Below, one piece after another: positions 42,971 through 62,462 of a DNA stretch of 64,000 nt (the stretch's first letter is position 1; every line of letters starts with the position of its first letter). The notes under the pieces are model-generated. The model was not told the origin of the DNA. It was given only the letters and a program-made list of their open reading frames with translations, and made no database searches. The translations under genes were made by a program, and so were the position numbers. This stretch comes from a virus, in IMG/VR virus record IMGVR_UViG_3300044729_002678, positions 32,001 through 96,000 of that record, one strand, 5' to 3'.

Positions 42971-44611
42971 TTAAGCACCACCAATAGTTTCCAATCCGTT
43001 CACATATACTTTACCATAGAACTCACCTCTGACCATTTCTTTGGCGTAGCGAGTCATTACACCCTTACGAGGAGTAAAGTTTTTGTAATCGTACACAAGA
43101 GGCGTCATAATCAATGGAATGTATGGAGCGTAAACAGCACCAGTTTCCAAGAATTGTGTTCCTCTGTAACCCATCAAAATCAAGTTTTCTTGCATATATG
43201 GGTTCTTATAAACCTGATATCTTTGTGCGAAAGAACCTACTTTGGTCATACCAAATGCAAATTGTCTTTCATCACCAGTTCCATCAGCAGTGTATCCTGG
43301 AATTGATTCCAAAATAGTAGCAACATCAGGAGAACATACTAAGAAGTTTGCACCACCACGCATTGTCTTAGCGTGAATTTGGTTAGAAACTCTCTGCAAT
43401 ACAGTTCCCAAAGTTGCGAACCAAGTACCCTGAATGTAAGCTGCTACATTAGTAGTGTTCGCATTTGTGAATGTAGTTCCATTCCATTCCTGTCCGATTT
43501 TTGCAGACCAGTAACCTGTAGTCAATGCGTTCTGAATCAACATGTCCAAAATCTCAAAATCAATCTCTTGTGATACATATTCAGATAACATTGAAGTTAA
43601 TTCTGCTTCTGCATCAATAGAGTGATATGCGTTCAAGTCCTGCGCAAATTCAGGTGTCCATTGTGCTTTCAACTTACGAGTTTTAGCAACAATTGGAACT
43701 GAACGCATTTCGATGTTCAATTCTGGGATTTCCAAATCCGTTTCAGGATTTGCTGCCATTTGTGTTTTTGATACCTCAAAATCACCACGAGTTACATCAG
43801 TTGGTTGTTTTTGGTATCTGATAGTAGCCGCTGTGGCGCCTGTTGCACTTGTAACTTTACAAACGAAAGCAATTTGAGTATCGGTTGAGTTTACAGTTGT
43901 AAATTGTGGGTAAAATGTTTCAATGTTAGTACCACTAATTGTAAACGCACGAACACCTTCCAAATCAGGACGAGTAAACGAACCTGTACTGAATGTTAAT
44001 TTTTGGAAAACACCACCAGCCGTTGAAGCAGACCATGCGGTATCATAGTTAAAATCAGCAGCTGAAATAGAAGCTGTTACCATAGCTGTGTCTGTAGGAG
44101 CCGCAGCTTTTGTAGAAATTGCTGATGTAGCATCATCGTTGATAGTGTAACCAAAACGACCAGCGCCATACAAACCACCTGAGGCTTGGTTGGCTGTTTC
44201 GGTAATACCAAATACTGAGTCGGCTTGTGAATTTTTACCAGAACCGGTTGTAAAACCAGGCTGACCTGTTCCATACTTAAAATCTAAATAGAAAATAAGA
44301 CCGGATGGGAGATTCATAGGTTGAACTGAAACAAACTCTTTCGCAGCGATTTCAGAGAAAATACGGCGAACAAGCGGAAGGGCTACGCCATTCCACTCTT
44401 CAGAGTTGTTGAACATTGATGTGGCAGAAGCTTCAGTTACTAACTGCTTTGCCTGATTTTCCAAAAGTTGAGCCATGTTGTTGATTTCGGTCTCATTGGT
44501 AATTTCATCTAAAAGACCGGTTTTTTTCCACTTGGCTACTAAACCTTTGGCTTCTTTACGAAGAACTCTTTCGAATCCTGCGCTTTCTTTTAAAATGCTA
44601 TTTATATTCAT
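42971..44611 (-). CDS. Major capsid protein (gp23-like)
   Basis: LPLVRR, VQPMNLPSGLIFYL, AKTRKLKAQWTPEFAQDLNAYH.IDAEAEL, YAPYIPL, MTRYA. Confidence 0.96.
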   Translation of the reverse strand: MNINSILKESAGFERVLRKEAKGLVAKWKKTGLLDEITNETEINNMAQLLENQAKQLVTEASATSMFNNSEEWNGVALPLVRRIFSEIAAKEFVSVQPMNLPSGLIFYLDFKYGTGQPGFTTGSGKNSQADSVFGITETANQASGGLYGAGRFGYTINDDATSAISTKAAAPTDTAMVTASISAADFNYDTAWSASTAGGVFQKLTFSTGSFTRPDLEGVRAFTISGTNIETFYPQFTTVNSTDTQIAFVCKVTSATGATAATIRYQKQPTDVTRGDFEVSKTQMAANPETDLEIPELNIEMRSVPIVAKTRKLKAQWTPEFAQDLNAYHSIDAEAELTSMLSEYVSQEIDFEILDMLIQNALTTGYWSAKIGQEWNGTTFTNANTTNVAAYIQGTWFATLGTVLQRVSNQIHAKTMRGGANFLVCSPDVATILESIPGYTADGTGDERQFAFGMTKVGSFAQRYQVYKNPYMQENLILMGYRGTQFLETGAVYAPYIPLIMTPLVYDYKNFTPRKGVMTRYAKEMVRGEFYGKVYVNGLETIGGA

Positions 44612-44642: not shown

Positions 44643-45734
44643 TTATTTTTTGATGTTAGCAAGCTTTTGGAATCTTGTAGCCAACGAAGAACCTTCGGTT
44701 ATGATACCAGCAGGTTTTGTTCCTTTGGTTGGTTTAGATGCAAATGATTCTCTAACAAATCTTTTTTGTGATTTTTTAGCAACATTAAGGTTTTCACCCA
44801 ATGTAGCAAACACTAATTTTACTTCTCTCAAAGATGAAGCACGGTCAAAGTTTTCTACAACTTTAACTTTTTGCTTTTCATTCAAATCAAAGTTTCTGAA
44901 AAGTTTGTTTGTGTAAAGTAGTTTTGCATTCAAAAGGTTTACTTCGTTAATGGTGTTCTTTAACGATTTAATTACTTTATATGCTTCTTCCAAATCACTC
45001 TTCATTTCTTCAGCCTCTTCTTCAGTCATTCCACCCTCTTCTTCATCTGCTGGCTCTTCACCATTCATTTCTCTAAGGGCCCTAATAACTTCATTCAAAT
45101 CAACTTCTTCATCGCCACCTTCTTCTTCAAAGAACTCACCAGTTCCTTGTTCATCTTCGGTTTCAGAATCGTAGTTAGCAACTTTATTATCACCTGCGCC
45201 AATTTCAGATGACTCTAATTCTTGTAATCTTTTTGATACTCTTTCACGAATTTTTTTCAATTCTGTGATTTCTGGGTTTTCTTCTTCAGCGGGCTCTCCT
45301 CCCATTTCACCTTCTAATTCTCTGATAATTGATTCTAAGTCTAAATCACCCATTTCATCATCATCATCTTCTTCAGCAGGTTCTTTGGTTTCAAATTCAC
45401 CACCCATTTCATCTTCTTCTTCAACAGGCTCGTCGGTTTCAAATTCACCACCCATTTCATCTTCTTCTTCAACAGGCTCGTCGGTTTGAAATTCACCACC
45501 CATTTCATCTTCTTCACCCATATACTCATCGGTTGTTGCAAACTCTTCTTCTTCCCCCATTGGAACTTCTTCATCTTCTAACTCTTCAGCAATTTTGTGA
45601 GACAACATTGATTGGAGTCTTGGAGTGAATGCTTCCTCAAGGGCGATTTTTGCATTTGCTAATGCTGTTTCTTTAACGGCTTTAGCATCGGCGATTGCTT
45701 CTTTAAGCAAATCTTTATTGCCTTTATTTTTCAT
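44643..45734 (-). CDS. Prohead core scaffold protein (gp22-like)
   Basis: Acidic, coiled-coil, directly upstream of the capsid gene; EVNLLNAKLLY, RFQKLA.I. Confidence 0.8.
   Translation of the reverse strand: MKNKGNKDLLKEAIADAKAVKETALANAKIALEEAFTPRLQSMLSHKIAEELEDEEVPMGEEEEFATTDEYMGEEDEMGGEFQTDEPVEEEDEMGGEFETDEPVEEEDEMGGEFETKEPAEEDDDDEMGDLDLESIIRELEGEMGGEPAEEENPEITELKKIRERVSKRLQELESSEIGAGDNKVANYDSETEDEQGTGEFFEEEGGDEEVDLNEVIRALREMNGEEPADEEEGGMTEEEAEEMKSDLEEAYKVIKSLKNTINEVNLLNAKLLYTNKLFRNFDLNEKQKVKVVENFDRASSLREVKLVFATLGENLNVAKKSQKRFVRESFASKPTKGTKPAGIITEGSSLATRFQKLANIKK
45390..45514 (-). repeat. 48-bp in-frame repeat (EEDEMGGEFxTDEPVE), about 3 copies
   Basis: aattcaccacccatttcatcttcttc repeated. 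Confidence 0.85.
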
Positions 45735-45868: not shown

Positions 45869-46126
45869 TTATTCTGCTTTACTTTTCAGATATTGTTTTC
45901 TAATGGCCAATTCCATTTTTTTTCTTTTTTCTATTGATTTTGGTACGAATTCAGTTCTTTCTTTCAAAACATCCATCATTCCGCTATCTTTAACCATTTT
46001 TTTGAAAAGTCTTAATGCTGCTTCAACATTATTGTCTACCACTTTAACTGCCATTCCCCTACCAGGAACATACATTAACTCTCTTCTAATTTTTTTCTTT
46101 TTTGGTCTTTCTTCGTTTTCGTTCAT
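45869..46126 (-). CDS. rpsU: Phage-encoded 30S ribosomal protein bS21
   Basis: V.V...NVE.ALR.FKK.V...G.....K.R..F...S..KR.K...A pattern. Confidence 0.85.
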   Translation of the reverse strand: MNENEERPKKKKIRRELMYVPGRGMAVKVVDNNVEAALRLFKKMVKDSGMMDVLKERTEFVPKSIEKRKKMELAIRKQYLKSKAE

Positions 46127-46476: not shown

Positions 46477-48243
46477 TTATTTTTTATGTGATTTAAATCC
46501 CTGTCCCTTCATCCACCAAGCCAATGCCCAAGGATTATCAATACCCGGTTCATCTTTCATCGCTTTTACTGTTTTTTTCCATCCTTCGGGTGCAACTTCG
46601 TTGGTTACTTGTTTATTTTCCACAAATGGTTTAAAAGCCGAAATAACTTTATCTGCTGTCATTTTATCAAATTTGCTTTGCATTGCAACATCACCAACTT
46701 TGTATAATTTCAACAACTTTTCTGCTGTTTTCTTATCAACTTTTGTAGAACCAACGCGGGAAGTAGAACCATCTACTACACTCTTTAACAAGTCAGATAA
46801 TTTTACATTTGCTTCATTTACTTTTTTTTTTAAAATAAGATTTGATAGTTTCATTTCACCAACAAAATCTTTTGCATTTTCTTTATCTTGCGGGTCTACA
46901 TCGGTTACTTTATAAGTCTTACCACCAACAGTGAAAGTATCCTCACCTGCTGCAATTGCTCTTGCTCTTTCAGCACCAAATTCATTACCTTCATCCATTA
47001 CGATTTCTGCATCACTCAATTTTCCTTTAACAAGACCACTTACAGTTTTAATTACAACTTCGTTACCTTTAACAGAATAAACCATTCCTGTCTTATTTTG
47101 TGATTTAAGATGGACGGTATCTCCAAACTTTGGTTTTTTTACTTCCTTCACTAAATTTTGAAATTTCATCAATACAATTGCGTAATTACCCACTTTTCTT
47201 TCTGCACCAGCTGCGTATTTTTTATTTACAATTGCAATAGTGTTCCCAGATACTTTAATTATATACATTGGTATCATTTCAGTTGAGAAATCATATTTAA
47301 TTCCTGCTTTTTTCAATTCAGAACCAACGTTCATAAATGATGATGCGTTTTTAACTGCCGCTTCAATTTTATCTAAATCAGCATCGTATTTACCTTCGTT
47401 TACTGATTCTTTAATAACATTCTCCATTAATCCAATTGCAATATCTTTAACTTCTCTTTCTGCACCAGCTGCATATTTTTTATTTACAATTGCAATAGTG
47501 TTTCCAGATACTTTAATTCTATACATTGGTATCATTGAAGTTGAGAAATCATACTTTACACCAATTTTCTTTAATTCAGAACCAACGTTCATAAATGATG
47601 ATGCGTTTTTAACTGCTGCTTCAATTTTATCTAAATCAGCATCATACTTACCTTCATTGATTGATTTTTTGTTTATTAATTGACTTAATTTCATGTTTTC
47701 TCCTACAAAATCTTTTGCATTTTCTTTATCTTCGGAATCTACATCCGTTACTTTAAATGTTTTATCACCAACTTGGAATGTATCTTCACCTGCTGCAATT
47801 GCTCTTGCTCTTTCAGCACCAAATTCATTACCTTCTTTTATTTCGTAATATTTACCCAATATCTCACCAATTTCATCATAAGACGATTCCAACCTTTGCT
47901 GGAGAGTTGATACTTCTTTGATAGTGTTTGTAAAAATCTTAAAAGATTCGTTCATAGATTTCATATGACGAGAAACAGTTACCTTATCAAACCAATCACC
48001 AGTTTCTTGTAAAGTTAATTTATGAGCGGTTTCAACAATCTTTTTAATGTTTTGGTATGCTTCCATCAAATTACCATTATGGTAAATTGCCTCACCAATT
48101 TTTCGGTATGAAGCAACTGCCTCAACAAAAGCCCTTTTTTCTTCATTGGTCATTTTTGTATCATCCAAATCTTCCTCACCAATGTTTAATCTACGATAAT
48201 CCATATGCTGTGATTCTTTTAATAAGTTAAATAGTTTTTTCAT
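46477..48243 (-). CDS. Modular internal head protein with duplicated modules
   Basis: A-B-B-C-A module layout with xNE junctions. Confidence 0.7.
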   Translation of the reverse strand: MKKLFNLLKESQHMDYRRLNIGEEDLDDTKMTNEEKRAFVEAVASYRKIGEAIYHNGNLMEAYQNIKKIVETAHKLTLQETGDWFDKVTVSRHMKSMNESFKIFTNTIKEVSTLQQRLESSYDEIGEILGKYYEIKEGNEFGAERARAIAAGEDTFQVGDKTFKVTDVDSEDKENAKDFVGENMKLSQLINKKSINEGKYDADLDKIEAAVKNASSFMNVGSELKKIGVKYDFSTSMIPMYRIKVSGNTIAIVNKKYAAGAEREVKDIAIGLMENVIKESVNEGKYDADLDKIEAAVKNASSFMNVGSELKKAGIKYDFSTEMIPMYIIKVSGNTIAIVNKKYAAGAERKVGNYAIVLMKFQNLVKEVKKPKFGDTVHLKSQNKTGMVYSVKGNEVVIKTVSGLVKGKLSDAEIVMDEGNEFGAERARAIAAGEDTFTVGGKTYKVTDVDPQDKENAKDFVGEMKLSNLILKKKVNEANVKLSDLLKSVVDGSTSRVGSTKVDKKTAEKLLKLYKVGDVAMQSKFDKMTADKVISAFKPFVENKQVTNEVAPEGWKKTVKAMKDEPGIDNPWALAWWMKGQGFKSHKK

Positions 48244-48257
48244 TTCATTTCCTTTTT

Positions 48258-49214
48258 TCAGTAAGAACCTGGTCTATTACCTTTTTTCATAGAAGTTGCC
48301 CAAATACCAATCATCTTTTTAATATCGGCGGGAATTTCTTTATCATAAATAGTTAGTTTACCATCTTTTCCTATATGGGCTATCGTTTCATAATCACCAT
48401 CTTTTTCTTCTGCCCTATTCCAAATAGTTAAACCATTACCCAAATATCCAGACCCAATATCGTATTTTTTAGCTTCGTTTAGTAATTTTTCCGAATATAC
48501 AGTCATACCGGTGTTGTCCTCAATTGTAAATATATAACCCGGTATATTTGTAACCTTTTTCATATGTTCAAACTTTGCAGGAATTTCATTTTTTGTTTTT
48601 ACCTGTGTTTGATAATACACTTTTTTATTAAACGATACTACAATAGTCCAAGGACCTGTTTGAGAACCCTTTTTAATACCGGCCATCATTTTTGCTGAAT
48701 TAGTAGCTTCGTTTACTGATTCTTTGATATATTTCATAGAAGAGTTTGAACCATCGGTAAAGAATACATTATCACCATCAATCATTTTTACTTTTCTTTT
48801 GAATGGGCCTTTTTTACCTAAAGCTGCTTCCCAATGTGGATTATCAACAACTTTAACCATTTGACCAACTTTGATTTCTTTTTTTACTGATTCTTGAAGC
48901 TTTTTAATTAGCTTATTTTGAATTGGATTATTCGGTTTTCCAGACACCGCAGTCACAAAATCCATTCTGTCTGAAAGTTTTCCCTTCTTAACAAATTGGA
49001 AAACTTTTTCGATATCCAAATTGTGAGTATCAACAAACTTTTGAACTGCATCTTTATTTAAACCGGTAAGTCCACCAATTTCCATTGCGGTTCTCGAAGC
49101 GGACTCTAATTTTAAGCTTTTTTGTGTGTTTTGAACTGCCACCAAATTCATTTCTTTTTTTGCAATCTCTCTAATCATTTTTTTGAGTTGTTCTAATTTC
49201 ATTTTGTTTCCCAA
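48258..49214 (-). CDS. Modular hypothetical protein (probable internal head protein)
   Basis: MKLEQLKKMIRE leader; ESVKKE, ESVNE and LLNE junctions. Confidence 0.65.
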   Translation of the reverse strand: MGNKMKLEQLKKMIREIAKKEMNLVAVQNTQKSLKLESASRTAMEIGGLTGLNKDAVQKFVDTHNLDIEKVFQFVKKGKLSDRMDFVTAVSGKPNNPIQNKLIKKLQESVKKEIKVGQMVKVVDNPHWEAALGKKGPFKRKVKMIDGDNVFFTDGSNSSMKYIKESVNEATNSAKMMAGIKKGSQTGPWTIVVSFNKKVYYQTQVKTKNEIPAKFEHMKKVTNIPGYIFTIEDNTGMTVYSEKLLNEAKKYDIGSGYLGNGLTIWNRAEEKDGDYETIAHIGKDGKLTIYDKEIPADIKKMIGIWATSMKKGNRPGSY

Positions 49215-49846
49215 TTTTTAGGACATTCGCAATATCCACCAATTTCACAAATAATATCTCGCATTATACTATTAGCAGTTTCATATTTATTCACTTTTGA
49301 ACCCCTACTAACACCCTCATTAACGGGTTTCATAAAAGCCCCATGAGTAGATGGGTTACTTACAAAATCCCAACAAATTAAATCAAAATCGTTTTCTACA
49401 GCAACAGTACCATCTTCTCTAATTTGACGAACTGAACCCATACCCCGTGAAGATATTCCTACCGTACAACCTGCTTCTATCAATTCTTTAAGTATTCTGC
49501 CCGATGGGGTATTTAGTATTTCTACTTTACCAACAACATCTTTACCATTCCACCATACATCTCTAATAATATGTGAAGTATTTTTTAATTCCACAACCGA
49601 TGATTCTGGGTGGTCTAACTCACCATATGCACGATTTTCTGTTATCTCTCTACCCTTATATTTATCAACCTCACGCTTCAAAATATTTTCGGGATATATT
49701 CTACCATTTTGGTTTTTTTCATTTGCCCTTTGAAGAACACCAGTTACAATTAATCTACCATTACCATTCATAGCAGCTTCTTTAAGCTGTTGTGGTTTTA
49801 CATCAAATACAATAGTATCAATTAATAGTTGTTTCATATCAGGCAC
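49199..49846 (-). CDS. Prohead core protease (gp21-like)
   Basis: NQNGRIYP, GELDHP, SH, GISSRGMGS, DFVSNPS. Confidence 0.93.
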   Translation of the reverse strand: MPDMKQLLIDTIVFDVKPQQLKEAAMNGNGRLIVTGVLQRANEKNQNGRIYPENILKREVDKYKGREITENRAYGELDHPESSVVELKNTSHIIRDVWWNGKDVVGKVEILNTPSGRILKELIEAGCTVGISSRGMGSVRQIREDGTVAVENDFDLICWDFVSNPSTHGAFMKPVNEGVSRGSKVNKYETANSIMRDIICEIGGYCECPKNWETK

Positions 49847-50366
49847 CCAATTGTCTTATTTTACTTGAAATTCGGTTTAATCGCTCTGATATTTTAGAAA
49901 AATTGTTTCTTGTTTTTTTCCAATAAGCACCAGATGAAATACCCATTTCTGTCTTTAGTTTTATATTTTGATTCACTAAGTGTTCAACCTCATATATCTT
50001 TCTATTAATTTCTTTAATAGCCTTATTAATTTTATATTGTGGGGAACCTGTTTCATCTTTTCGGTATTGACGATAGTTCATTTCATTGATGACATCCTCA
50101 ATCTTTTTTTCCCAATTTTCTAAAAAATTTCTTTTTACATTTTTTACTTTTTTATACCCCAACACCTCAATATGGTCATTATCCATATCTCCTTTACTTT
50201 TCGCAAAAGCATGTGGAGTTCGTGGTGGACCAGCACCGCCATCCAAATTACCGGTAACATTTTGTTCACCCAAATCCTCATCATCCTTTTCATCGGGATT
50301 GACGATTTCCTCTTCTTCTAATTGCTTAAATTTTTTATCAAGCTCTTCAATTAAAAACCTACTCAT
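49839..50366 (-). CDS. Conserved head-module hypothetical protein
   Basis: TPHAF motif and C-terminal coiled coil; between portal and protease. Confidence 0.7.
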   Translation of the reverse strand: MSRFLIEELDKKFKQLEEEEIVNPDEKDDEDLGEQNVTGNLDGGAGPPRTPHAFAKSKGDMDNDHIEVLGYKKVKNVKRNFLENWEKKIEDVINEMNYRQYRKDETGSPQYKINKAIKEINRKIYEVEHLVNQNIKLKTEMGISSGAYWKKTRNNFSKISERLNRISSKIRQLGA

Positions 50367-51205
50367 TATTGAACACCCTTTAATTCGTTTAACAATTGAT
50401 AGTATCTTAAAAGTCCAAGTGCTTGAACCTCCGATACGATTTTTGCGTTGGATAAATTATCAATCAACCCAATAACCTCTTTTAACTTAATGGAAGAAAC
50501 TTTATCAGTAATTTTAAACTTTGAGAATTCATTTTTAAGTTTTTTACTTTCCCTTAAAATAAATCTTTTTAAATTGCCTGAATTATCAATATTGTTAATA
50601 TAATTTCTAAGAACCAATTTTTGTTCGCTGGTTAGTTCTTTATACTTATCATTAAATTTATCAACTAAAAACTTATAAGCCAATAACCTAACATCTTTTG
50701 ATTCTTTACTATACAAATCAGTATTTTCTTCTTTTATAGGTTTTTTTGTTTTTGTTATATTTTCTAAAATTTGATTTTTACATTCAACCCATTCTTTTGG
50801 ATATGTATTTTCTTGATTCTCAAATAGTTTATATATAGTGGCAAGTGATTTATAGTTATTTACCCTATACTTAAAAAAATCTTTAGCATCAAACTTTTCA
50901 TTTATTGATTTAATAAGATTATATTTTTCTTTTTTTAAATTGGTTTCATTTAATTTTTTTCTTTCAACCAAAATAATATTAAGAAACTCACTTGCTTTGT
51001 ATGTATTATCAAAATTTTCTTTGACAAGATATTGATACATTTTAAGTTCTTTACTTAATTCACTACCCTGCTTAAAATGCTTTTTAATTATAGATAATCC
51101 TATTGAATTTTTTTCATTCAAAGTATCAGATGCAATCTGCCTAACAAGAAGTTCAAATAAAACCCCAGTGTTTTTAAATTTAGAATGCTTTAATTTAGTG
51201 TTCAT
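50366..51205 (-). CDS. Conserved head-module hypothetical protein
   Basis: KHSKFKNTG.LFELLVRQI. Confidence 0.7.
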   Translation of the reverse strand: MNTKLKHSKFKNTGVLFELLVRQIASDTLNEKNSIGLSIIKKHFKQGSELSKELKMYQYLVKENFDNTYKASEFLNIILVERKKLNETNLKKEKYNLIKSINEKFDAKDFFKYRVNNYKSLATIYKLFENQENTYPKEWVECKNQILENITKTKKPIKEENTDLYSKESKDVRLLAYKFLVDKFNDKYKELTSEQKLVLRNYINNIDNSGNLKRFILRESKKLKNEFSKFKITDKVSSIKLKEVIGLIDNLSNAKIVSEVQALGLLRYYQLLNELKGVQ

Positions 51206-51250
51206 TTATAATTATCCTATCTTATCAATAAATAAATATACAAAATTTAA

Positions 51251-53152
51251 TTAAACATCGTTATTTAATATGTTTCTTTCATCCAACATATCAAATTTTT
51301 GGTTTTTTTCATCGGTATCTGTCAACAATGACTCAACTATAATTTTTTTAGTTTTTATTTTTGAATTTTGTAAGCTTGTTTTTAACTGCATCCCTTCAAC
51401 AGAAAGTGGTGATTTCCTAAATGTATGGTATGCTTTTTCAGGTTTTATATCCGTTTCATATCCCATTGCGTTTCTTCCAAAAGAACTATCATCAGTTCCA
51501 GCAATACTACCCTCTTCCGGTCTACCAGCCCCTTCAAATCCACCAGGAGGTGAACCACCTTCATTATCACCAGAAGCAGGTTGCCCTCCCGCTTCTGCCG
51601 ATTGTTGTGATAATGCTGCCAAATCATGCGGAGTTCCAAACGATTCACCAGTCTTAATTGGGTCATTACCCTCAGTTTCAATTTGGGACTGTCTAAATCC
51701 TAATTTCAAATCGTTAATAACTTTAACCTGTTCTGCTTTCCACTCATCATCGGACATGTTAAATATATTTTTATATACCCATTCTTGTGAAAGTAGTTTT
51801 GATGTTTTTATATCCGATGCCAATCGCACATTTTCAATCCAAAGAGCAACCTTTTCTTGCTGATAAATTATTGATGGTGGTGTTAATTCTAAATAGAAGT
51901 TAGATAAGGCCTCATTTTCGTATCCCTGTGCATACAAATGTATGATTGCTATTTTTGTCAATTCGGATAAAACAATTTTTTGTACCCGCTCAATACTCCT
52001 AGCAAAACGAATATCTTGTTGAGCAAGCGTCGCTTTACCCTCTACACCCTCTTCATAACCAATAAATGCTTTTGGAACTTTAAGAGCGGCCTGCATTCGG
52101 TTTTTAAGATAATTTATATCCTCAATACCAGTGAATTCCATTCCACCCAAAGTATCAATTTGAGTACCACTTTGACCACCTCTTACGGGTAAATAATAAT
52201 CTTCTAACATATTTTGTATGTTAAATTTAAGATTATAATCACCAGTAGCTTCATCTACATAAGGAACTTTTTTCATTTGGTCTATAATGTTCCTAACATG
52301 CTGGTCTACTTCATTTGGTGGTATGTTACCAACATCAATTTTAAATACCCTTTTTTCAGGAGCACGCATAATACGATGAATTAACATCGCATCTTCCATA
52401 AGGGTTAATTGTTTCCAAGTTTTTCTAGCAGGTTCTAATAAGGAACGACCATAAGGTAAAAAGTTTGTGTCTGAAAATAACCTAAAATGGGCTATTTTAT
52501 AAAATGGAATATAATTTTGTATATCGTTGCTAGATTTTTGATAATTAAATCCGGTAGCACCACCACCCATCGTTGTCATTTTAAATCTAACTTCATATGG
52601 GTTATCGGAATTAAACCCCTCTTCTCTTTCAATTTCATATGCTGATATTGGTGATACATTTACAATACCAATACCCTCTTCAATATCTAAGTTAAGATAG
52701 TAATCGCCATATTTATTCATCCCTCTAATCCACGCCCAAAGATTAAATTCTATATTAAGGACATCATAAAAAAGATTTTGTAATATTTTTTTAATATTTT
52801 CATCATCCGAATTAATCCTCAATACATCCCCAAGATCGTTCTTGAGTGTGCATTCATCCGAGTAAATATCTAAAACGGATGCAATAATTGAATCTTTATC
52901 CATCGCCTCATAATCAGTATAAAGTTCTAACCGATTGGATGAATAATTGTATTGATTATTGTAAGTTTCCCAATTTTGACGAGATGAGTGTAATCTACCA
53001 AATCTATCGTAGTAGGAAGTTCCTTTTATATTACCCTGCGATTGTAATCGTTGTGTATCAATAGCCCTAGTTTTACCCTTACCAATTCTTCTTACTACAA
53101 CCTGAGTTGAAAAGAGTTTTTGTAATCTACCGAATAAAGATTTATCTGCCAT
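51251..53152 (-). CDS. Portal protein (gp20-like)
   Basis: YGRS.LE.AR..WKQL.LMEDA..IHRI.RAPE.RVF.IDVGN, EDYYLP.R. Confidence 0.95.
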   Translation of the reverse strand: MADKSLFGRLQKLFSTQVVVRRIGKGKTRAIDTQRLQSQGNIKGTSYYDRFGRLHSSRQNWETYNNQYNYSSNRLELYTDYEAMDKDSIIASVLDIYSDECTLKNDLGDVLRINSDDENIKKILQNLFYDVLNIEFNLWAWIRGMNKYGDYYLNLDIEEGIGIVNVSPISAYEIEREEGFNSDNPYEVRFKMTTMGGGATGFNYQKSSNDIQNYIPFYKIAHFRLFSDTNFLPYGRSLLEPARKTWKQLTLMEDAMLIHRIMRAPEKRVFKIDVGNIPPNEVDQHVRNIIDQMKKVPYVDEATGDYNLKFNIQNMLEDYYLPVRGGQSGTQIDTLGGMEFTGIEDINYLKNRMQAALKVPKAFIGYEEGVEGKATLAQQDIRFARSIERVQKIVLSELTKIAIIHLYAQGYENEALSNFYLELTPPSIIYQQEKVALWIENVRLASDIKTSKLLSQEWVYKNIFNMSDDEWKAEQVKVINDLKLGFRQSQIETEGNDPIKTGESFGTPHDLAALSQQSAEAGGQPASGDNEGGSPPGGFEGAGRPEEGSIAGTDDSSFGRNAMGYETDIKPEKAYHTFRKSPLSVEGMQLKTSLQNSKIKTKKIIVESLLTDTDEKNQKFDMLDERNILNNDV

Positions 53153-53171
53153 AAGTATAAATATAATTTTT

Positions 53172-54755
53172 TTAAAATAACCAACCTAAATCAACATCAT
53201 TACCACGAATATCTTTCATAATATATGGATTTTGGCCTGAGTTTTTACTTGAGAATACCGTTATTTGATTTCCAGATACACGGGTGATACTACTTAAAGC
53301 ATTTCTTGTTAAGTTCATACCTTGCTGTCTTAACTTCAATGCGGTATCTCTAACCCAAAGACCTGTAGAAAATGATATAACCAAATCATCATTATATCCC
53401 CTTTGTGCCTCTGCTTTTGACCCATTCCATATAAAAACAAATAACTCATCCAACAATCGTTTAGAGTGAATTATTGGTGATTTTTCTCTCATATAAGTAT
53501 CTAATTTAGATACTATTAAAGGCCTCGTTTTTTGTGTCATTGAAAATCCTGGCACCATATCTTCTTTTTGCTTTAAATCCCATCCCCTCCTTAAATGAAT
53601 ATCTTCATCTATATATCCCAACTCCCTATACGAATAGTAAAGATTTCCATAATTACGGTCAATTACTTCCTGAATAACAGCCCATCCAATATTTGCATTT
53701 TCAATCACCAAAAGGGCGTTGTTCCATTCTGCTGCTACCGATGATAAGAAAGCACCATATTGTTTTGTTTCTATTTTACCTTTGTATTCCGCCACCTGCT
53801 CTAACTGCTCAACATCAATCACATGAAAAGCAGAATAATCTGCTCCATCTCCCCTTGCAACATCCGCCACAACTATATAATCTTTTGAATAGTTAGGATA
53901 ATCCCATATCCAATAATTTGCATCAAATCCACGCTTCTCAATAGGTTCTGTTACATGCGTTTCTTTATACCACTCCAATACAGAACCATCAACGACTGTG
54001 TAACCTGATGAAATAAAATCAGTATCACATTCTTGAGCAGCACCCTTTTCCCCCAATAATCTTGTTTGTTCATCTCTCCATCTTTGATTTCTTTCGGGGT
54101 GAACCGTCCAGTGTAATCTCGTTGGATGCCATTTATCACCAGCTTCTCCCTGCTGCCAAACTTTATGGAAAAAATTACCAACCCCATTTGGTGTTGAAAG
54201 AACTATTGCACCACCACCAGTTGAAAGTGTGGATTGTGCAGATAACCAAATCTCTTCAATACCTTTGATAAATGCGGCCTCATCTATAATCAATAAAGAA
54301 AGTGCTTCAGAACGTCCTGCGGTTTCAGTCGCAGAAACTGCTTTGATTTGAGAACCATTTTTTAATCGAAGTGATAATTTATTATCTTCAGCAGCACCCA
54401 CCTTTAACCAACTTGGTAGATTATCATACATAAATCTAACCTTTGTAACCAAGTTTTTTGCTACATCTTGCGTTGTTGCAATTACAAGAACATTCTTATC
54501 TCTATGAAATATCATCAACCAAGTTGCGTATCCAGCTGAAATAGTTGATATACCTAATTGGCGGGATTTTAGAATAACATTAAATCGGTGGGTTTTAAAA
54601 GAATCAATTAAATCTTCTTGGAAATCATATAGGTTAAATAATATTTTTCCCCTATGCGGGTGCTGTATGTAACAATATTTTTTAAAAAAATATATTGGGT
54701 CTTTCGCACACTTTACATACTCTTCTGATATTAATTCTTTTAAAGTTTTCGGCAT
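53172..54755 (-). CDS. terL: Terminase large subunit
   Basis: KSRQLGIST, LIIDEAAF, STPNG, ADVARGDG.DYS, IENAN.G, DDLV. Confidence 0.95.
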   Translation of the reverse strand: MPKTLKELISEEYVKCAKDPIYFFKKYCYIQHPHRGKILFNLYDFQEDLIDSFKTHRFNVILKSRQLGISTISAGYATWLMIFHRDKNVLVIATTQDVAKNLVTKVRFMYDNLPSWLKVGAAEDNKLSLRLKNGSQIKAVSATETAGRSEALSLLIIDEAAFIKGIEEIWLSAQSTLSTGGGAIVLSTPNGVGNFFHKVWQQGEAGDKWHPTRLHWTVHPERNQRWRDEQTRLLGEKGAAQECDTDFISSGYTVVDGSVLEWYKETHVTEPIEKRGFDANYWIWDYPNYSKDYIVVADVARGDGADYSAFHVIDVEQLEQVAEYKGKIETKQYGAFLSSVAAEWNNALLVIENANIGWAVIQEVIDRNYGNLYYSYRELGYIDEDIHLRRGWDLKQKEDMVPGFSMTQKTRPLIVSKLDTYMREKSPIIHSKRLLDELFVFIWNGSKAEAQRGYNDDLVISFSTGLWVRDTALKLRQQGMNLTRNALSSITRVSGNQITVFSSKNSGQNPYIMKDIRGNDVDLGWLF

Positions 54756-54764
54756 TGGTTTTTA

Positions 54765-55367
54765 TTATTTACTTATTTTCCAATAAACTTTTCCTGTAAA
54801 GTTTGGTACTAAATTATTATCAAAACCAATTCCAAGTGCATATGCTTTTTTCTTTTTTGTTTTTAATAATAATTCACCATTTAAAACCATAAAATTTTTA
54901 TTTGCGGTAATACCTGTTCCCAAATAAACTTCTCTTTTATTTACTAAAATCGTATTTGTTACAATTTTTGTGGGTATTAAAATATTTGAAATATGCTGCC
55001 GTGCTTCAATTTGATTTTTTGAAATAGTATCTTTCATCACAATATAACCAAATGTATCCACAGCAATTGTATCTTCGTAATAATATTTTGCGTAGTAATC
55101 TCTCAAAAGAGACATAGTATCTATTGGTTCATTTTGATTAATAAAAATACTATCTATATCAACTACAACTTTATCTTTCCATTCTGGGGCATAAACCTCC
55201 GATTCAGTATTAATAGTATCGTATTTATACTCTATCGTTGTTACTGTATCAATTATGGGTTCGTTATTGAAAATATTCTTAACAAAACCCATAGGTAATT
55301 TATCCCTAAGTAAAAATAGGGCGATTAACAATATTATTACAGATATAATAATTTTAGACAGTTTCAT
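54765..55367 (-). CDS. Membrane-anchored protein, possible spanin-like lysis protein
   Basis: N-terminal TM, many D-T/S-hydrophobic repeats, C-terminal amphipathic beta strands ending GKVYWKISK. Confidence 0.45.
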   Translation of the reverse strand: MKLSKIIISVIILLIALFLLRDKLPMGFVKNIFNNEPIIDTVTTIEYKYDTINTESEVYAPEWKDKVVVDIDSIFINQNEPIDTMSLLRDYYAKYYYEDTIAVDTFGYIVMKDTISKNQIEARQHISNILIPTKIVTNTILVNKREVYLGTGITANKNFMVLNGELLLKTKKKKAYALGIGFDNNLVPNFTGKVYWKISK

Positions 55368-55611
55368 TATTTTTTTTCTGCTTTTTTTGTCTTGATTTAT
55401 AATTATTTCTTCTTTTTGGTTTTGGTTTTACTTCTTCTGTTTTCACTTCTGGTGATAATTGACCCACAGATGCTTTTGCAGATGTAAGTGGTTTGATTTG
55501 TGTTTTTAATGGTTCTATCTTTACAATTTCTAATGTTTCAGGTAAATTTATTATTTTTTTACCCATAAAAAATCGATCGAACGAACTCAATAACTTTTTT
55601 AAAATGCTCAT
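55354..55611 (-). CDS. Small basic hypothetical protein
   Basis: 85 aa, AGGAGG SD, late motif. Confidence 0.65.
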   Translation of the reverse strand: MSILKKLLSSFDRFFMGKKIINLPETLEIVKIEPLKTQIKPLTSAKASVGQLSPEVKTEEVKPKPKRRNNYKSRQKKQKKNNETV

Positions 55612-55652
55612 AACTTTTCCTCCTATTATTATAAATACTGATTTTAATTTTA

Positions 55653-56588
55653 TTAAACTAATTTTGATATAAGTTCATTTGCTTTACCTATTAACAAATC
55701 ATTATATGAACTGTTTGTTATTATTGGTAGAGCTGCTATTATATCTTTTTTGGATTGAATATACATTTTTGATTTTGGGCTGTTTTCAAACTTTTTTGCG
55801 CCCCAAAGATGATAGATTGATTTATTTAATAACTCCTGTGCTTCTTCGGGTTCACCATCTAAATTAAAAGAATAAAACGATTTATTGGTGTATATAACTG
55901 GAACTAATGCTTTTGTTTTTACGTTCTTAACCCCCTTTGATAATGCGGCTAAAAACCATTGCTCCAATGTAATTTGAGCGGAAGATGCGGCATACATCTT
56001 TTTTTTCTCATCTGTCATATTTTTTATTTCACCACTCGCACCCAATACAAATTTAAAATACTTAGAAACATATTCTTTTTTAAATTTCTCATTTTTCATA
56101 CCAACTACCGCACAATTCATTGGAAAAGAATCTATAAATAGTTGTTTAAGTTTTTCATCCCATCTCCAACTAGATGAATGTTCAATATCTAATGGATTCC
56201 CATATGTGAATGGTGATTCTCTATGTAAATACAATAAATCACAATCATCCATTTCTTTTTTTAGGTTTTTATATAATACCAAATCAGTATCATAAATAAC
56301 AAAAGGCGCTTTTAATTTAGACATAGCCCATATTTTAGGGGATGCCCAAAAATTATTAGAAATCATTTCATATGGATAATCATCAAAATAATGGGTAATA
56401 ACTTTATCGTATAATGGGGTTATATTCCAATTATCATAAAATTCTTTTGATTTTTTATCGGTAATTAAATAAAGTGGTGTATTTGAATTGTAAATTTTGT
56501 GTACTATACACGAATACATTTGAACCAATAACTCAAAACTTCCAGGCGGTCTATCATCGTTGACCAAAAATACATGATACGCATTCAT
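55653..56588 (-). CDS. Putative GT-A fold glycosyltransferase
   Basis: LITD, W..PK, FVIYDTDLVL (DxD), NCAVVG, LEQ, YHLWG.KK. Confidence 0.6.
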   Translation of the reverse strand: MNAYHVFLVNDDRPPGSFELLVQMYSCIVHKIYNSNTPLYLITDKKSKEFYDNWNITPLYDKVITHYFDDYPYEMISNNFWASPKIWAMSKLKAPFVIYDTDLVLYKNLKKEMDDCDLLYLHRESPFTYGNPLDIEHSSSWRWDEKLKQLFIDSFPMNCAVVGMKNEKFKKEYVSKYFKFVLGASGEIKNMTDEKKKMYAASSAQITLEQWFLAALSKGVKNVKTKALVPVIYTNKSFYSFNLDGEPEEAQELLNKSIYHLWGAKKFENSPKSKMYIQSKKDIIAALPIITNSSYNDLLIGKANELISKLV

Positions 56589-56625
56589 CGAAACTTATTT
56601 AGTATAAATATGGATTAAAAAGTAA

Positions 56626-56895
56626 TTAATCCAATTCTTTTATCATTACTTTTAATGGTGTTTTTCCCTTTAGTATCCTATGATATGTTTCTTTTTGTAT
56701 GGTAAATACATCCCCAACTTTAAGTTCTATTGGTAGTTTATTATCAGATTGAAAATACCAACCTTTTCCATCAACTACTTCAACCAATCTTGTTTTTTTA
56801 TCTCTATGCCATACTAATTCTGAATTATCTACATCCGTATCAAAAGACCGGTAGATAATACTTTTAGATTTGGTTTCTGCGTATGGTTTACTCAT
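56626..56895 (-). CDS. Small cupin-like protein
   Basis: WHRD...R.VEV....W.FQ.DN..P..L..GD...I....YHR. Confidence 0.6.
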   Translation of the reverse strand: MSKPYAETKSKSIIYRSFDTDVDNSELVWHRDKKTRLVEVVDGKGWYFQSDNKLPIELKVGDVFTIQKETYHRILKGKTPLKVMIKELD

Positions 56896-56896
56896 T

Positions 56897-58654
56897 TTAC
56901 CAATATGAATTTATATCCTCACCACCACCGATTTTAGACCAATGGCGGGGTAAATTACAACTCCAATAACCTGGTGTAGTTTTATCTTTCTTATCAGGAC
57001 AATTGTGCCTGTCTGAAAATGCTTTTCTTGCTTCTGGGTTATTTATTTTTGCAGTTAACCCACCCTTTACATCGCCGAAAGTTACTTTTCTAATATTATC
57101 ACTTTCTGGGTCTTTTACATAAACTACATATTTTTTACCTTCACCTGAATTTCTTTTGGGTGAATTTAATTCTACTTCTTGTCCCTGATATTCTGCTTCG
57201 GTTAAAATTGGAAAATCTAAAAGAACTTTTTTTCCCTCATAAATACCAACCTTACCTAAATCGGAATCTAAAAACCATTCATCGCTTTCATTCATTGGTA
57301 TAAATTCACCCTTTTTCCAAAGAGTTCTACATTCATTTACCAACTTAAAGAATTTGGGAGAACCATACCTGTAAATATTTTCTGATATTGGTTTTTTGTT
57401 TTTTATGTGATATTGAAGCCCCTCACTCAAGTTTTTTTTTACTTCACCCAACGGATTACCATTTACATTTAATTCACCATTTAGGTAATGTTTCGCATTT
57501 ACCATTAGAGTTTTTGCACTAACAATATCAGATTGCCACCAATGTGGAAAATCAATCTCTTCTTCCGCATTATCAAATTGCCCTAATAATTCATATAATT
57601 CTTTTGCATATTTTGCGATACGAAAAAGGTCTGCTTTTAACATATTTGGTTCATCGTCTTGATGTCCTACATCTATATCCTCTGTCAAACTTTTTAACTT
57701 CTTTAACTTTGTTGTTAAATCAGCCATATCTTTCAAATGGGCTTTTTGCGCAGGGGTTCTATCACCCTGTGGAATTTTTGTAAACTCCACCGTTTTTTTG
57801 GCGTTATCTTTTAATTTTTTTTGGATTGATAACATCTCCTTTTTTTGTTTTTCAGTACCCTTTCCCACTTTTTTAACTGAAGAAACCGATGGTTCATCAT
57901 CATCAACTTCATTTATAACAGGGTATTTCTTACCACCAAATTCAAACTCTTTCAATCCTTCTTTTCTTGCTTTAAAAAGTGCCCCAGTAAAAGCATTTCC
58001 CTCGTTTACTGATTCTTTTTTCATTTTTCTTTTTTGTAGAACTAATTGTTGAATTTGTGAAAATATGGATTGTATATCCTTATCTAATTGTTTTTCATCT
58101 GCGCTCATTGGTGATTCAATATCTACATTGGAGTAAAGTTTTTTCTTTTTTGCAATTAATACATCCACCTTTTTAATTAAATCATTTTTTACTTTATCCA
58201 AATCTTTTATTATATCTTCGGTAGTATTTTCTTTTATTACCCCCTCCCGCCTATTCAACAACTTAAACGCAATGGTCTGCATTTTCATAAGTCCTGCGTT
58301 TACAAATTGGTCCCTATTCTCCTGTTTCTTCAATTGGTCATAAACGGATATGATAGCGGATGCTGAGTATGAATCTACTTTCATCTGCTTTCCGGTCTTA
58401 GGGTCTTTAACTGATTTATAACCTGACCTCATAACATCTCTTAGTTGAGTTATTACCGGCGGTTCATTCTTTGCTTCATTTACTACCCCTTCTTCGGTTT
58501 TCCAACCCCCACCAGCTGCTTTGTATTGTTTTGCTGCCCAGGCATTGGCGTAGGCACTTGGATATACGTCAAACTTTTTTTTTGCCTGCGATTTATAGTA
58601 AGACCATTTTGAAGGGTCGGTTGGAACATTCTTTTCTACCAATTGTTTTTTCAT
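56897..58654 (-). CDS. Modular polyprotein-like internal head protein
   Basis: Start re-set to MKKQLVEK with GAGGT SD; domains separated by VNE/LTE/LSE. Confidence 0.65.
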   Translation of the reverse strand: MKKQLVEKNVPTDPSKWSYYKSQAKKKFDVYPSAYANAWAAKQYKAAGGGWKTEEGVVNEAKNEPPVITQLRDVMRSGYKSVKDPKTGKQMKVDSYSASAIISVYDQLKKQENRDQFVNAGLMKMQTIAFKLLNRREGVIKENTTEDIIKDLDKVKNDLIKKVDVLIAKKKKLYSNVDIESPMSADEKQLDKDIQSIFSQIQQLVLQKRKMKKESVNEGNAFTGALFKARKEGLKEFEFGGKKYPVINEVDDDEPSVSSVKKVGKGTEKQKKEMLSIQKKLKDNAKKTVEFTKIPQGDRTPAQKAHLKDMADLTTKLKKLKSLTEDIDVGHQDDEPNMLKADLFRIAKYAKELYELLGQFDNAEEEIDFPHWWQSDIVSAKTLMVNAKHYLNGELNVNGNPLGEVKKNLSEGLQYHIKNKKPISENIYRYGSPKFFKLVNECRTLWKKGEFIPMNESDEWFLDSDLGKVGIYEGKKVLLDFPILTEAEYQGQEVELNSPKRNSGEGKKYVVYVKDPESDNIRKVTFGDVKGGLTAKINNPEARKAFSDRHNCPDKKDKTTPGYWSCNLPRHWSKIGGGEDINSYW

Positions 58655-60116: not shown

Positions 60117-62462
60117 TTAATAGAATAAACCTAAAATTTGATTAATCGGAGCGAAAACTCCAGTAAGTTTCAGAGTATTGCCTTTATATACAAAAACAAT
60201 TCCTTCTTTTGGAACAATTTTATTTACACCACCAATCGCTTCTAATCTTTCTAATTCCATTTTAAGCTTAGCAACTTTCTTAGGGTCTCCACCCGTTTTA
60301 ACATCTTTAATAGTTTGGTCTAATCTCGTTTTAATACTACGAATTGCTTCATCGGGATTTACAGTTAGTACTGAACTCATAAATGATAATACCTCAGAAC
60401 CAACACCCAAAAATATATCCTCAAATGGTCGAATATTATCTTTTGATATTTTTTGGTGGTCGTTTTTATCCACACCCAATGCCCATTGTAATACTTTTTC
60501 CGATTTAATTGTTTTGTTACTTAATCCAAAACCTTTATTAAAGAATGCCCACCTTCTTATTAATCCGTCTTTTGTTTCTTTATCTAACTTTTCAGGTGAA
60601 TTTTTTTCTATGTAATCATCCCACCAAGCCTGATGATACTCTGCCATACCATAGCTATCTTTTAACCCAAATTTAGATTGTAATTTTTGCAACATCCCCA
60701 AAAACTTTGGTTGTAATTGTTTTAAGCTTTCCTCTTTTGGTAATTGAGTAACGGGTGGTCCTTGTATGGTATATTTGTCTTGAACATGCTGATTTACTTG
60801 TTTAATCATCCCAGCTAATACGGTAGCATCAGATTGCTCTGCTCCAATTGCCACACCACTATCATCGTATTCAGTTGTGTTATGAAATACTAATAGAGCC
60901 TGACCATAAGGTATTACATTTACGGAGGTTGGATAAATAACCTCTAAGTTCATAAATTTCTTACCCTGCTTAAATATTTTGTCCCGTTGTGCTTTGGATA
61001 AACTACCCATTGCTTTTTCTAAATCTTTCATAGCAAAGTTGTAAGCATCAGTTAATCCACCTCTACCAGCAAATTTAGTAGCAACATCCTTTATGGACAT
61101 TGCGTTTTCACCACTATTTGCTAAATGCCCTTTATTTCTTGCAGCAATTAATCCCCTATCATCTCTCCAGCTAATAGCAAGTGCTTGGCCATCTGTTTTT
61201 TCTCGAGTCAGTTCAAGTTCACCATTTAGGGCTTTTGTTATTATGTTTTTTAAATCACCAAAAGTTAAATTTAATTCATTATCAAATGGATGATTCATAT
61301 GACCGTATGCACCACCTTCGGTTAAAAAGTTGGAAAACCTTTTACCAATAGTTTCCAATAATTTATATTGTTTTTTATCTAATATTTCTAGTTTTTTACC
61401 AAGTACCCACTCAACAACCTCATAACCCATTCCTCTATATACTTCTTTTAAATCAACATCTTCTAATCCAGTTATTTCAACCTCCGGCGCATTTTGGGTA
61501 GTATCTAACGGAGATGTTGCCAGGTCAGCAGTTAAATAATCTTCGGTTTCAGGAATATCCAACAAATCATCCATTGTGAATACCTTTCTCCTACTTACAT
61601 ATTGATAAAAATCACCAGTACCTTTTGCACTTTTTCTAACCATTACATCTGCTTTTGGAAAATGCATTTGGGTATATCCACCATTTACAAACCAATAATC
61701 ATTTTTTTGTGCACCTTTTCCTAGTCCTAATATTCTTTCTTTATTATCTGGAACATAAATTGCATCAGGTTCTCCTGCATCCGCACCATATCCGCCACCT
61801 AATGTCGATTCAATTAGGGGAACTATATTATAATTTTGTAAAAAATTGGTTACTATTTCGTTTACACCACCCAACCTTTTAGAAATCATATTAAATATTT
61901 CCTGATTCCATTGTGGGTATGCTTTCTTAAAACCGGCTTTCTTTTGTGAATCGCTCCCCTTCGATAACCAATTACGAACATCAGTTCCACTTATTGGATT
62001 CTTTTGAGAAGGTGATACATACACATACCCATGGTCTTTATAACCAAATGCGGGTTTGAAACCATCGCCCGAATGAAATTTCTTAAAATACTTTCCACCA
62101 AGTCTTGCAGCGTCTTTCTCACCAACAACAGTTACAAATGCGGTTGTTTCATCTGAAAACTTTTTTAGTATTTCCGTTGGATTATATGGATTTTTTACTT
62201 GAACAATTTTGTTGGGTGGAACACCAAACATTGTGGTCATTATTTTTTTCTTCTCCAAAAAATTGAAAGGGTCTTTTGGTCCACCACTTTTGTTGGATGT
62301 CCCAATGAATACATTTTCTTTACCGAATTTTGATACTAAATGCGCATATGTTGCGTAATGCCCTTTATGAAATGGTTGAAATCTACCCGCGTAAACTACA
62401 ACAGTCTTATTTACTTCTTCGGTTAATACAGATTTAACCCATTCTTTTATTAAATTTCCCAT
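60117..62462 (-). CDS. HxGH nucleotidyltransferase fused to a ligase-like (KxDG) domain
   Basis: YAGRFQPFHKGH, ISGT.VR; C-terminal EKTDG, NLEVI, LVFH, EGIVF, LKLTG. Confidence 0.7.
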   Translation of the reverse strand: MGNLIKEWVKSVLTEEVNKTVVVYAGRFQPFHKGHYATYAHLVSKFGKENVFIGTSNKSGGPKDPFNFLEKKKIMTTMFGVPPNKIVQVKNPYNPTEILKKFSDETTAFVTVVGEKDAARLGGKYFKKFHSGDGFKPAFGYKDHGYVYVSPSQKNPISGTDVRNWLSKGSDSQKKAGFKKAYPQWNQEIFNMISKRLGGVNEIVTNFLQNYNIVPLIESTLGGGYGADAGEPDAIYVPDNKERILGLGKGAQKNDYWFVNGGYTQMHFPKADVMVRKSAKGTGDFYQYVSRRKVFTMDDLLDIPETEDYLTADLATSPLDTTQNAPEVEITGLEDVDLKEVYRGMGYEVVEWVLGKKLEILDKKQYKLLETIGKRFSNFLTEGGAYGHMNHPFDNELNLTFGDLKNIITKALNGELELTREKTDGQALAISWRDDRGLIAARNKGHLANSGENAMSIKDVATKFAGRGGLTDAYNFAMKDLEKAMGSLSKAQRDKIFKQGKKFMNLEVIYPTSVNVIPYGQALLVFHNTTEYDDSGVAIGAEQSDATVLAGMIKQVNQHVQDKYTIQGPPVTQLPKEESLKQLQPKFLGMLQKLQSKFGLKDSYGMAEYHQAWWDDYIEKNSPEKLDKETKDGLIRRWAFFNKGFGLSNKTIKSEKVLQWALGVDKNDHQKISKDNIRPFEDIFLGVGSEVLSFMSSVLTVNPDEAIRSIKTRLDQTIKDVKTGGDPKKVAKLKMELERLEAIGGVNKIVPKEGIVFVYKGNTLKLTGVFAPINQILGLFY

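Follow-up and report, generated by a model that had tools for sequence, protein, structure and literature searches.

The DNA considered here raises the question of why a phage should encode one short peptide, in three different genes, by exactly the same string of nucleotides. The window, i.e. the whole stretch of 64,000 nucleotides (nt) that was analysed, corresponds to bases 32001-96000 of the IMG/VR virus record IMGVR_UViG_3300044729_002678, whose whole genome is one contig of 161,618 bp. It carries three genes, called P1, P2 and P3 here, encoding strings of small modules separated by peptides that end in (V/I/L)-x-E and are followed by a small residue. The explanation that we favour, with a probability of about 0.62, is that P1, P2 and P3 are polyproteins loaded into the prohead and that the DNA of their cut sites doubles as an in-frame microhomology for recombination.

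The modules were defined by splitting P1, P2 and P3 at (V/I/L/M)-x-E sites, from the motif alone. This yields 17 modules of 51-161 amino acids (aa), four to seven per protein, 13 of which have an isoelectric point (pI) of at least 8.1 (Table 1); the likely starts of P2 and P3 are the ATG codons at 49202 and 58654, respectively. A preliminary description of this DNA, made from its letters, had listed junction peptides made of (V/I/L)-x-E and a small residue, and every one of them was found, the peptides present being KESVNE/G, KESVNE/A, KSINE/G, KKVNE/A, LLNE/A, VVNE/A, SLTE/D and ILTE/A (the slash marks the predicted cut). It had also spoken of strings of small unrelated domains. The strings are real, but the absence of relationship does not hold throughout: P1 includes two repeats, one in tandem (246 nt, 87% identical) and one dispersed (181 nt, 81%), and therefore the modules B and A, present twice and three times, respectively, are paralogous.

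The sequence shared by the three genes, already noticed in the preliminary description, is the 17-mer AAAGAATCAGTAAACGA. It occurs exactly three times in the genome, always on the minus strand; the copies belong to three different genes, where all of them are read in frame as KESVNE, whereas the flanks of the three copies are unrelated past about 20 nt. Given the peptide, the probability of identical codon strings in the three copies is 4e-4 to 9e-4 with the codon usage of the genome, which does not account for the identity of the 17-mers. When up to three mismatches are allowed, the window contains five matches for 0.56 expected, a number reached by none of 100 shuffles. The 13-nt partial copy reported earlier lies within a three-mismatch copy, CAAGAATCAGTAAAAAA, which encodes LQESVKK/E and corresponds to a decayed junction, orthologous to an intact ESVNE in the close relatives L003, L005, L007 and L008. 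RNA folding around the three words revealed no structure (z-scores of -0.8 to +0.6) and no hairpin. A one-mismatch copy in reverse orientation, AAAGAACCAGTAAACGA, is absent from all the 80 relatives described below and was taken as probably due to chance; it lies inside a minus-strand gene, where it reads S-F-T-G-S.

The conservation of the word was examined in 80 IMG/VR loci fetched via the protease gene (72-99% identity), using as core word of the ESVNE sites the 14-mer GAATCAGTAAACGA. Among the 60 ESVNE sites with less than 50% flank identity, 45 carry exactly GAATCAGTAAACGA (5% expected, P ~1e-45); the codons are TCA at 51, GTA at 57 and AAC at 53 of the 60 sites, whereas the S, V and N codons flanking ESVNE sites display normal usage. 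As no opposite-strand copy was found in the 80 loci, the orientation of the word is strictly that of the coding strand. At the other VNE, INE, LNE and xTE sites, GTA and AAC codons are not clearly in excess, and silent positions vary in an ordinary way when the cleavage-type sites of orthologous proteases or capsid proteins are compared. Therefore, the constancy is a property of the ESVNE junction rather than of the peptide or of protease sites generally. Furthermore, in diverged module pairs compared over a single flank, synonymous codon difference reaches 22-32% in the flank vs 7-12.5% at the junction (P ~2.5e-4). More largely, the exact 17-mer is found in at least 118 IMG/VR stretches; among the matches listed, 119 of 129 are in frame in stop-to-stop open frames no shorter than 150 aa and represent 96 contexts, and 81 of the 117 loci concerned carry homologous core head genes. 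At the protein level, ESVNE occurs 132 times in 120 homologues vs 0.13 expected. These comparisons establish the fixation of the word at silent sites and confirm that codon bias fails to explain its identity.

The same 80 loci reveal what happens at the junctions. Their core head genes are colinear, whereas P1, P2 and P3 are mosaic, and the modules defined in the window reappear at full length in other orders, in other genes and at the other locus. For example, L004, which is 98-100% identical to the window in shared parts, carries module B in its P2-like gene and no B in its P1-like gene. In L005 (about 98% identical in shared parts), 2a is joined straight to 2d and 2c is found in the P1-like gene. 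The more distant L009 and L013 harbour 3f-2b-2a-2c after the protease gene and 3n-1C-3g-3h-3i upstream of the terminase gene. What stays constant is the frame made by the modules at both ends, 1N-1A...1A2-1D and 3n...3i: 1N-1A is near-invariant among 45 homologues whereas the middle of P1 is variable, and the interior between 3n and 3i varies across more than 2,000 homologues. Altogether, homologues with mosaic coverage amount to 2,152 for P3 and 757 for P1. Some polyprotein homologues carry an SLT lysozyme domain (4e-28), DUF3008 or DUF5824; in two larger P3 relatives, P0138 and P0130, an SLT lytic transglycosylase (PF01464, 4e-28) and a ParB-like DGHHR module, recognized by eye, are flanked by the same frame modules, first and last.

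The breakpoints of this mosaicism coincide with the junctions, as was to be expected if, as proposed in the preliminary description, the shared junction serves as a recombination microhomology in a cassette array. Indeed, 17 of the 37 distinct internal blastn endpoints lie at most 20 nt from sites of the strict motif [VIL][NT]E[GAD], for 3.3 expected (P<1e-4). The remaining endpoints mostly correspond to the decayed junction or to weaker [VIL]-x-E sites (IKE/G, LVKE/V), apart from a few located close to the N-terminal ends of P2 and P3. Junctions of L005 are chimeric at the nucleotide level, their left flank being identical to one window junction and their right flank to another, with crossovers inside the junction word, joined within TCA/GTAAACGAA. 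The NE-type junctions are the variable adjacencies (0-44% kept), whereas IKE/G, SLTE/D and ILTE/A are stable ones (91-100% kept, judged from the upstream module). The proteins are thus modular and shuffled exactly at their junctions, and the earlier proposal is well supported by both breakpoints and chimeric junctions.

Several features suggest that these junctions are also cut. The strict motif occurs 28 times in the proteins of the whole genome (49,711 aa), including nine times in P1, P2 and P3 (1,495 aa), and the cleavage-type motif is 6-fold above composition in 120 homologues. Other strict-motif sites are found at residues 58-60 of the capsid protein (QLVTE/AS), at the C-termini of the scaffold candidate (IITE/GS) and of the protease (PVNE/GV), and at residues 18-20 of a 164-aa protein. 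The capsid site, a predicted propeptide site after residue 60, lies 16 residues ahead of the VRR segment, which is conserved and was aligned with mature T4 gp23*, and it is present in 40 of 40 relatives (L-V-(T/S/K)-E/A in 38, L-I-S-E and I-V-S-E in the other two). The protease site KPVNE/GV is a candidate for C-terminal self-cleavage, and most relatives retain it in the form [VIL]-[NK]-E/[GS]. P1, P2 and P3 begin with putative targeting leaders that end in (L/I/V)-x-E and resemble, in sequence, the T4 capsid-targeting sequence (CTS). The pattern M-x(3-9)-hydrophobic-x-E matches 8 of 211 open reading frames (ORFs), five of which encode the capsid protein, the scaffold candidate, P1, P2 and the 164-aa protein.

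Structure prediction and relatives point in the same direction. With homologue alignments, AlphaFold2 models P1 and P3 as beads on a string. In P3, the five junctions and the leader all lie within, or at most 1 aa from, segments whose predicted local distance difference test score (pLDDT) is below 50 (P ~0.002). In P1, the same holds for all six junctions and such linkers (P ~0.002), the B modules scoring 80-88. Furthermore, stand-alone genes made of a leader ending in ESVNE, a B module and a stop exist in relatives (P0004, P0007 and P0009). P0009 belongs to a related head-gene cluster, where its position is two genes upstream of an S77 protease gene; such genes link the modules to classical T4-style internal proteins. 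It is therefore from several kinds of resemblance that cleavage of P1, P2 and P3 by the prohead protease, with release of small internal proteins, is considered likely, and delivery of the modules into the host less so.

The proposed mechanism would be the following. P1, P2 and P3 would be prohead-targeted precursors in which a T4-CTS-like leader precedes four to seven small, mostly basic and independently folding modules. The neighbouring gp21-type protease would probably cut the (V/I/L)-x-E sites followed by a small residue in the prohead, and the cuts would release internal proteins analogous to IPI-III of T4. GAATCAGTAAACGA, which encodes the commonest junction, (K)ESVNE, would be the in-frame microhomology where modules join, drop, duplicate and move, within a gene, between both loci or between co-infecting phages. 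Each new combination of modules would at once be a valid precursor because the crossover restores both the reading frame and the cut site. We lean towards the idea that the word is kept because it is a recombination substrate. The stronger proposal, i.e. that it is a dual-coded element under selection as an in-frame crossover hotspot, giving a protein-level cassette system for capsid-delivered proteins that would be a phage analogue of exon shuffling or integrons, could with equal probability be right or wrong.

Cargo is not the only possible fate of such proteins. P1, P2 and P3 may be expendable parts of the prohead core or scaffold, like gp22, gp67 and gp68 of T4, which would be chopped and whose pieces would mostly leave the head; the modules would then be assembly parts and not delivered cargo, and shuffling at junctions would still occur. 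Indeed, P1 and P2 lie between the protease and capsid genes, where T4 has its core genes, and 1N, kept in all relatives, is helical and scaffold-like in the AlphaFold2 model and is a stand-alone gene right after the protease gene in Microcystis phage Mel-JY01. Searches of profiles and folds disclosed no effector domain: comparison of P1, P2 and P3 with Pfam and PHROG gave sub-threshold or unknown-function matches only, and Foldseek comparison of the P1 and P3 models with the PDB gave nothing at E<=0.001, the rows being generic helical bundles and weak SH3-like ones. However, the phage encodes a separate acidic repeat protein as candidate scaffold, and P3 lies upstream of the terminase gene, beside the gene of the 164-aa basic protein, outside the core-gene position. 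Moreover, compact folded modules with a very high turnover among near-identical phages are unusual for assembly parts, and the SLT lysozyme and ParB-like DGHHR modules of homologous polyproteins are typical of delivered proteins, so that this explanation is unlikely. It is very doubtful that P1, P2 and P3 are uncleaved multidomain virion or accessory proteins, in which (V/I/L)-N-E would be a favoured linker and the word a recombination scar inherited with it. The motif is admittedly short, its cleavage is a prediction, and the stable boundaries IKE/G, SLTE/D and ILTE/A indicate that modules can stay together, but the same motif is found at the conserved propeptide position of the capsid protein and at the C-terminal site of the protease, it ends the leader of the stand-alone versions directly ahead of their module, and it is enriched in the homologues as mentioned above.

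The word itself might have a function in nucleic acids or translation, as target of a sequence-specific nuclease or homing enzyme, RNA processing site or codon string causing ribosome pausing between domains, recombination being incidental. Such a function would fit a silent-site conservation that exceeds that of the flanks across deep divergence, as well as the strict orientation, but not the lack of RNA structure or the ordinary codons used by the other VNE, INE, LNE and xTE sites and by the VNE of the protease, which imply that no codon rule applies to the peptide; we regard it as quite unlikely. Finally, most relatives are metagenomic contigs, in which mosaicism might reflect assembly chimeras at a shared short repeat. 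This is extremely improbable because the same architectures recur in different samples (L003 and L004, L011-L013, L070 and L080-L082) and because a repeat of 14-17 nt is shorter than the k-mers of assemblers; in addition, the exact P1 sequence is found on 13 contigs and the genome of the window itself has the tandem duplication of B and three copies of the word.

The preferred reading, a string of prohead cargo modules recombining at dual-purpose junctions, has to face several observations that weigh against it. Cleavage, presence in the virion and injection are predictions from sequence and models; a literature search returned no virion proteome for this phage, a close relative or immuto-like phages. 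The cleavage motif and the leader pattern were partly defined post hoc, and Pfam, PHROG and Foldseek searches matched none of the window modules to any known family or fold of effectors. In shallow orthologous pairs sharing both flanks, which are too close to be informative (unlike the diverged single-flank pairs), synonymous difference is 8.5% vs 8.8%, with no excess of junction conservation; active maintenance is visible across deeper comparisons only, where pairs are not phylogenetically independent. About eight exact 17-mers are located in an unrelated small conserved open frame (45-68 aa stop to stop), which reads FYYNRGCN-KESVN(D/E)-LYRKIL in the IMG/VR loci L099, L101, L105, L108, L109, L138, L147 and L160. 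Lastly, 14-17 nt is short for T4-type homologous recombination, and microhomology, copy-choice or a dedicated enzyme are all candidates.

The source phage (161.6 kb, 33.5% GC) is a T4-like phage of Flavobacteria type. Nearly all genes of the window are on the minus strand, and a T4-type head module is found there, with terminase, gp20 portal, S77 protease, scaffold candidate and gp23 capsid genes (Table 1). The gene order is terminase, portal, two unknown genes, protease, P2, P1, a 106-aa gene, a bS21 homologue, scaffold candidate and capsid, the scaffold candidate directly preceding the capsid gene, i.e. in the same slot as in relatives. The nearest named phages, according to the portal protein, are Flavobacterium phage immuto and Mel-JY01 (about 51-52%), and megablast found nothing matching the region among GenBank phages. 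ESVNE or ESLNE sites are only faint in immuto, and none was found in Mel-JY01. A bS21 homologue is likewise found at this position in Mel-JY01 and in the metagenomic contig carrying P0009. The stop codon of the protease gene and the ATG that probably starts P2 share the sequence ATGA, which suggests translational coupling of the protease with its putative substrate. The 164-aa protein (pI 9.7), a candidate stand-alone internal protein, has a leader similar to that of P2 and to the leaders encoded by the stand-alone genes for B modules. The scaffold candidate (363 aa) includes 48-nt tandem repeats encoding EEEDEMGGEFETDEPV units. A 781-aa cytidylyltransferase-like protein, with an internal FLTE/GG at residues 380-382, may be a further substrate of the protease.

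Table 1. Positions, within the window, of the polyprotein genes, their modules, the junction words and the neighbouring features
Feature	Position	Strand	Remarks
P1	46477-48243	-	Leader MKKLFNLLKE/, seven modules
1N	47833-48243	-	Module of P1
1A	47653-47832	-	Module of P1
1B	47395-47652	-	Module of P1
1B2	47143-47394	-	Module of P1
1C	46990-47142	-	Module of P1
1A2	46813-46989	-	Module of P1
1D	46480-46812	-	Module of P1
P2	48258-49202	-	Leader MKLEQLKKMIRE/, four modules
2a	48879-49202	-	Module of P2
2b	48708-48878	-	Module of P2
2c	48474-48707	-	Module of P2
2d	48261-48473	-	Module of P2
P3	56897-58654	-	Leader MKKQLVE/, six modules
3n	58475-58654	-	Module of P3
3e	58229-58474	-	Module of P3
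3f	58001-58228	-	Module of P3
3g	57680-58000	-	Module of P3
3h	57197-57679	-	Module of P3
3i	56900-57196	-	Module of P3
Word, copy 1	47396-47412	-	KESVNE/G, between the tandem B modules 1B and 1B2 of P1
Word, copy 2	48709-48725	-	KESVNE/A, boundary of 2b and 2c of P2
Word, copy 3	58002-58018	-	KESVNE/G, boundary of 3f and 3g of P3; homology of relatives starts or ends at aa 215-223
Decayed junction	48880-48896	-	Boundary of 2a and 2b
Partial copy within the decayed junction	48883-48895		13 nt
Reverse-orientation copy	41445-41461	+	One mismatch
Gene containing the reverse-orientation copy	41387-41794	-
Major capsid protein, gp23 family	42971-44611	-	Pfam PF07068, 7e-80; leader MNINSILKE/S
Acidic repeat protein, candidate scaffold (gp22 analogue)	44643-45734	-	Leader MKNKGNKDLLKE/A, C-terminal IITE/GS
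Tandem repeats of the candidate scaffold	45347-45534
bS21 homologue	45869-46126	-	PF01165, 5e-11
Prohead core serine protease, T4 gp21-like, Peptidase_S77	49199-49846	-	Pfam PF03420, 2.2e-32; phrog_207, 5e-55
Overlap of protease stop and P2 ATG	49199-49202
Portal protein, gp20 family	51251-53152	-	Pfam PF07230, 1e-70
Large terminase	53172-54755		Head module
164-aa basic protein adjoining P3	58668-59162	-	Leader MKQSQLRKLIRE/SIKSVLTE/AS
Cytidylyltransferase-like protein	60117-62462	-	781 aa

The system can be compared with several known ones, on the basis of parts of the papers cited. In T4, the CTS of IPI, IPII, IPIII and Alt is removed by the prohead protease gp21 (PMC7411985, PMC3012670). 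The T4 internal proteins and the system described here share a gp21-family protease, leaders of about 10 residues ending in hydrophobic-x-E, small and mostly basic products (here predicted ones), a hypervariable repertoire that conserves nothing but the signal for targeting and cleavage, and, in relatives, stand-alone genes made of a leader and a module. They differ in that many modules are here carried by one chain with internal cut sites, and that the DNA of the signal is itself fixed and coincides with the breakpoints of recombination. In giant phages, the gp245 protease of SPN3US acts at AXE sites with multiple processing of head and ejection proteins (PMC7411985, PMC10052503). There also, a T4-related prohead protease cuts several head proteins after x-x-E, and long propeptides target cargo into the prohead; however, giant-phage substrates lose propeptides, and the sections considered of these two papers describe neither exchangeable strings of modules nor conservation of the DNA of the sites.

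At the DNA level, a parallel exists with the promoter early stem-loop elements (PeSLs), intergenic regulatory elements consisting of a promoter and a terminator hairpin that shuffle whole genes in T4-like phages (PMC2839356, PMC4122927). In both cases, a short conserved DNA motif in one orientation is the place where close relatives insert, delete and exchange modules, and breakpoints at the repeated motif were indeed found here between close relatives. For PeSLs, excised mini-circles have also been found. However, the word described here, far from being an intergenic promoter with a terminator stem-loop, is 14-17 nt long, in frame, peptide-coding and devoid of RNA structure, and it shuffles modules inside ORFs. 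At the protein level, polyvalent proteins (Iyer et al. 2017, PMC5512222) are defined by conflict enzymes that can be recognized as such and, in many cases, have a zincin-like peptidase of their own. P1, P2 and P3 resemble them by the many unrelated domains per polypeptide, by the mosaicism, by the neighbouring head and packaging genes (portal and terminase genes are found in the gene order) and by a predicted packaging with DNA, and relatives of P1-P3 carry SLT and ParB-like modules. However, the modules of the window are tiny, have no assigned fold family, gave no match to conflict-related domains in the profile and fold searches, and are delimited by prohead-protease-type separators with a fixed DNA word. 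In the literature retrieved, of which the parts considered define the scope, an in-frame dual-coded junction is not described and nothing relevant concerns 'ESVNE'.

A last comparison concerns gene cassettes. Integrons carry ordered arrays whose units can be acquired, lost or moved at a recurring junction sequence, through attC inverted repeats and an integrase. The modules behave likewise at their repeated junction, inside the constant frame that the end modules of P1 and P3 make; unlike in integrons, no attC-like inverted repeat or hairpin was found at the word, and the units are in-frame protein modules and not genes.

If the reading favoured here is true, the paradigm of the T4 internal proteins would be widened to cover arrays of exchangeable units in addition to single genes. 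Mosaic 'hypothetical' proteins, of which aquatic viromes encode thousands (two of the genes have 2,152 and 757 homologues), would likewise find an explanation, and the junction motif would allow such proteins to be divided by computation into units to be screened for function, e.g. for anti-defence activity. Recoding the word would make it bench-testable whether its silent sites are kept for recombination. Globally, one word of 14-17 nt would be both a protease site and a recombination point, so that any exchange would give a functional precursor, and large phages would thereby have a built-in route to diversify the proteins that they carry into their host.

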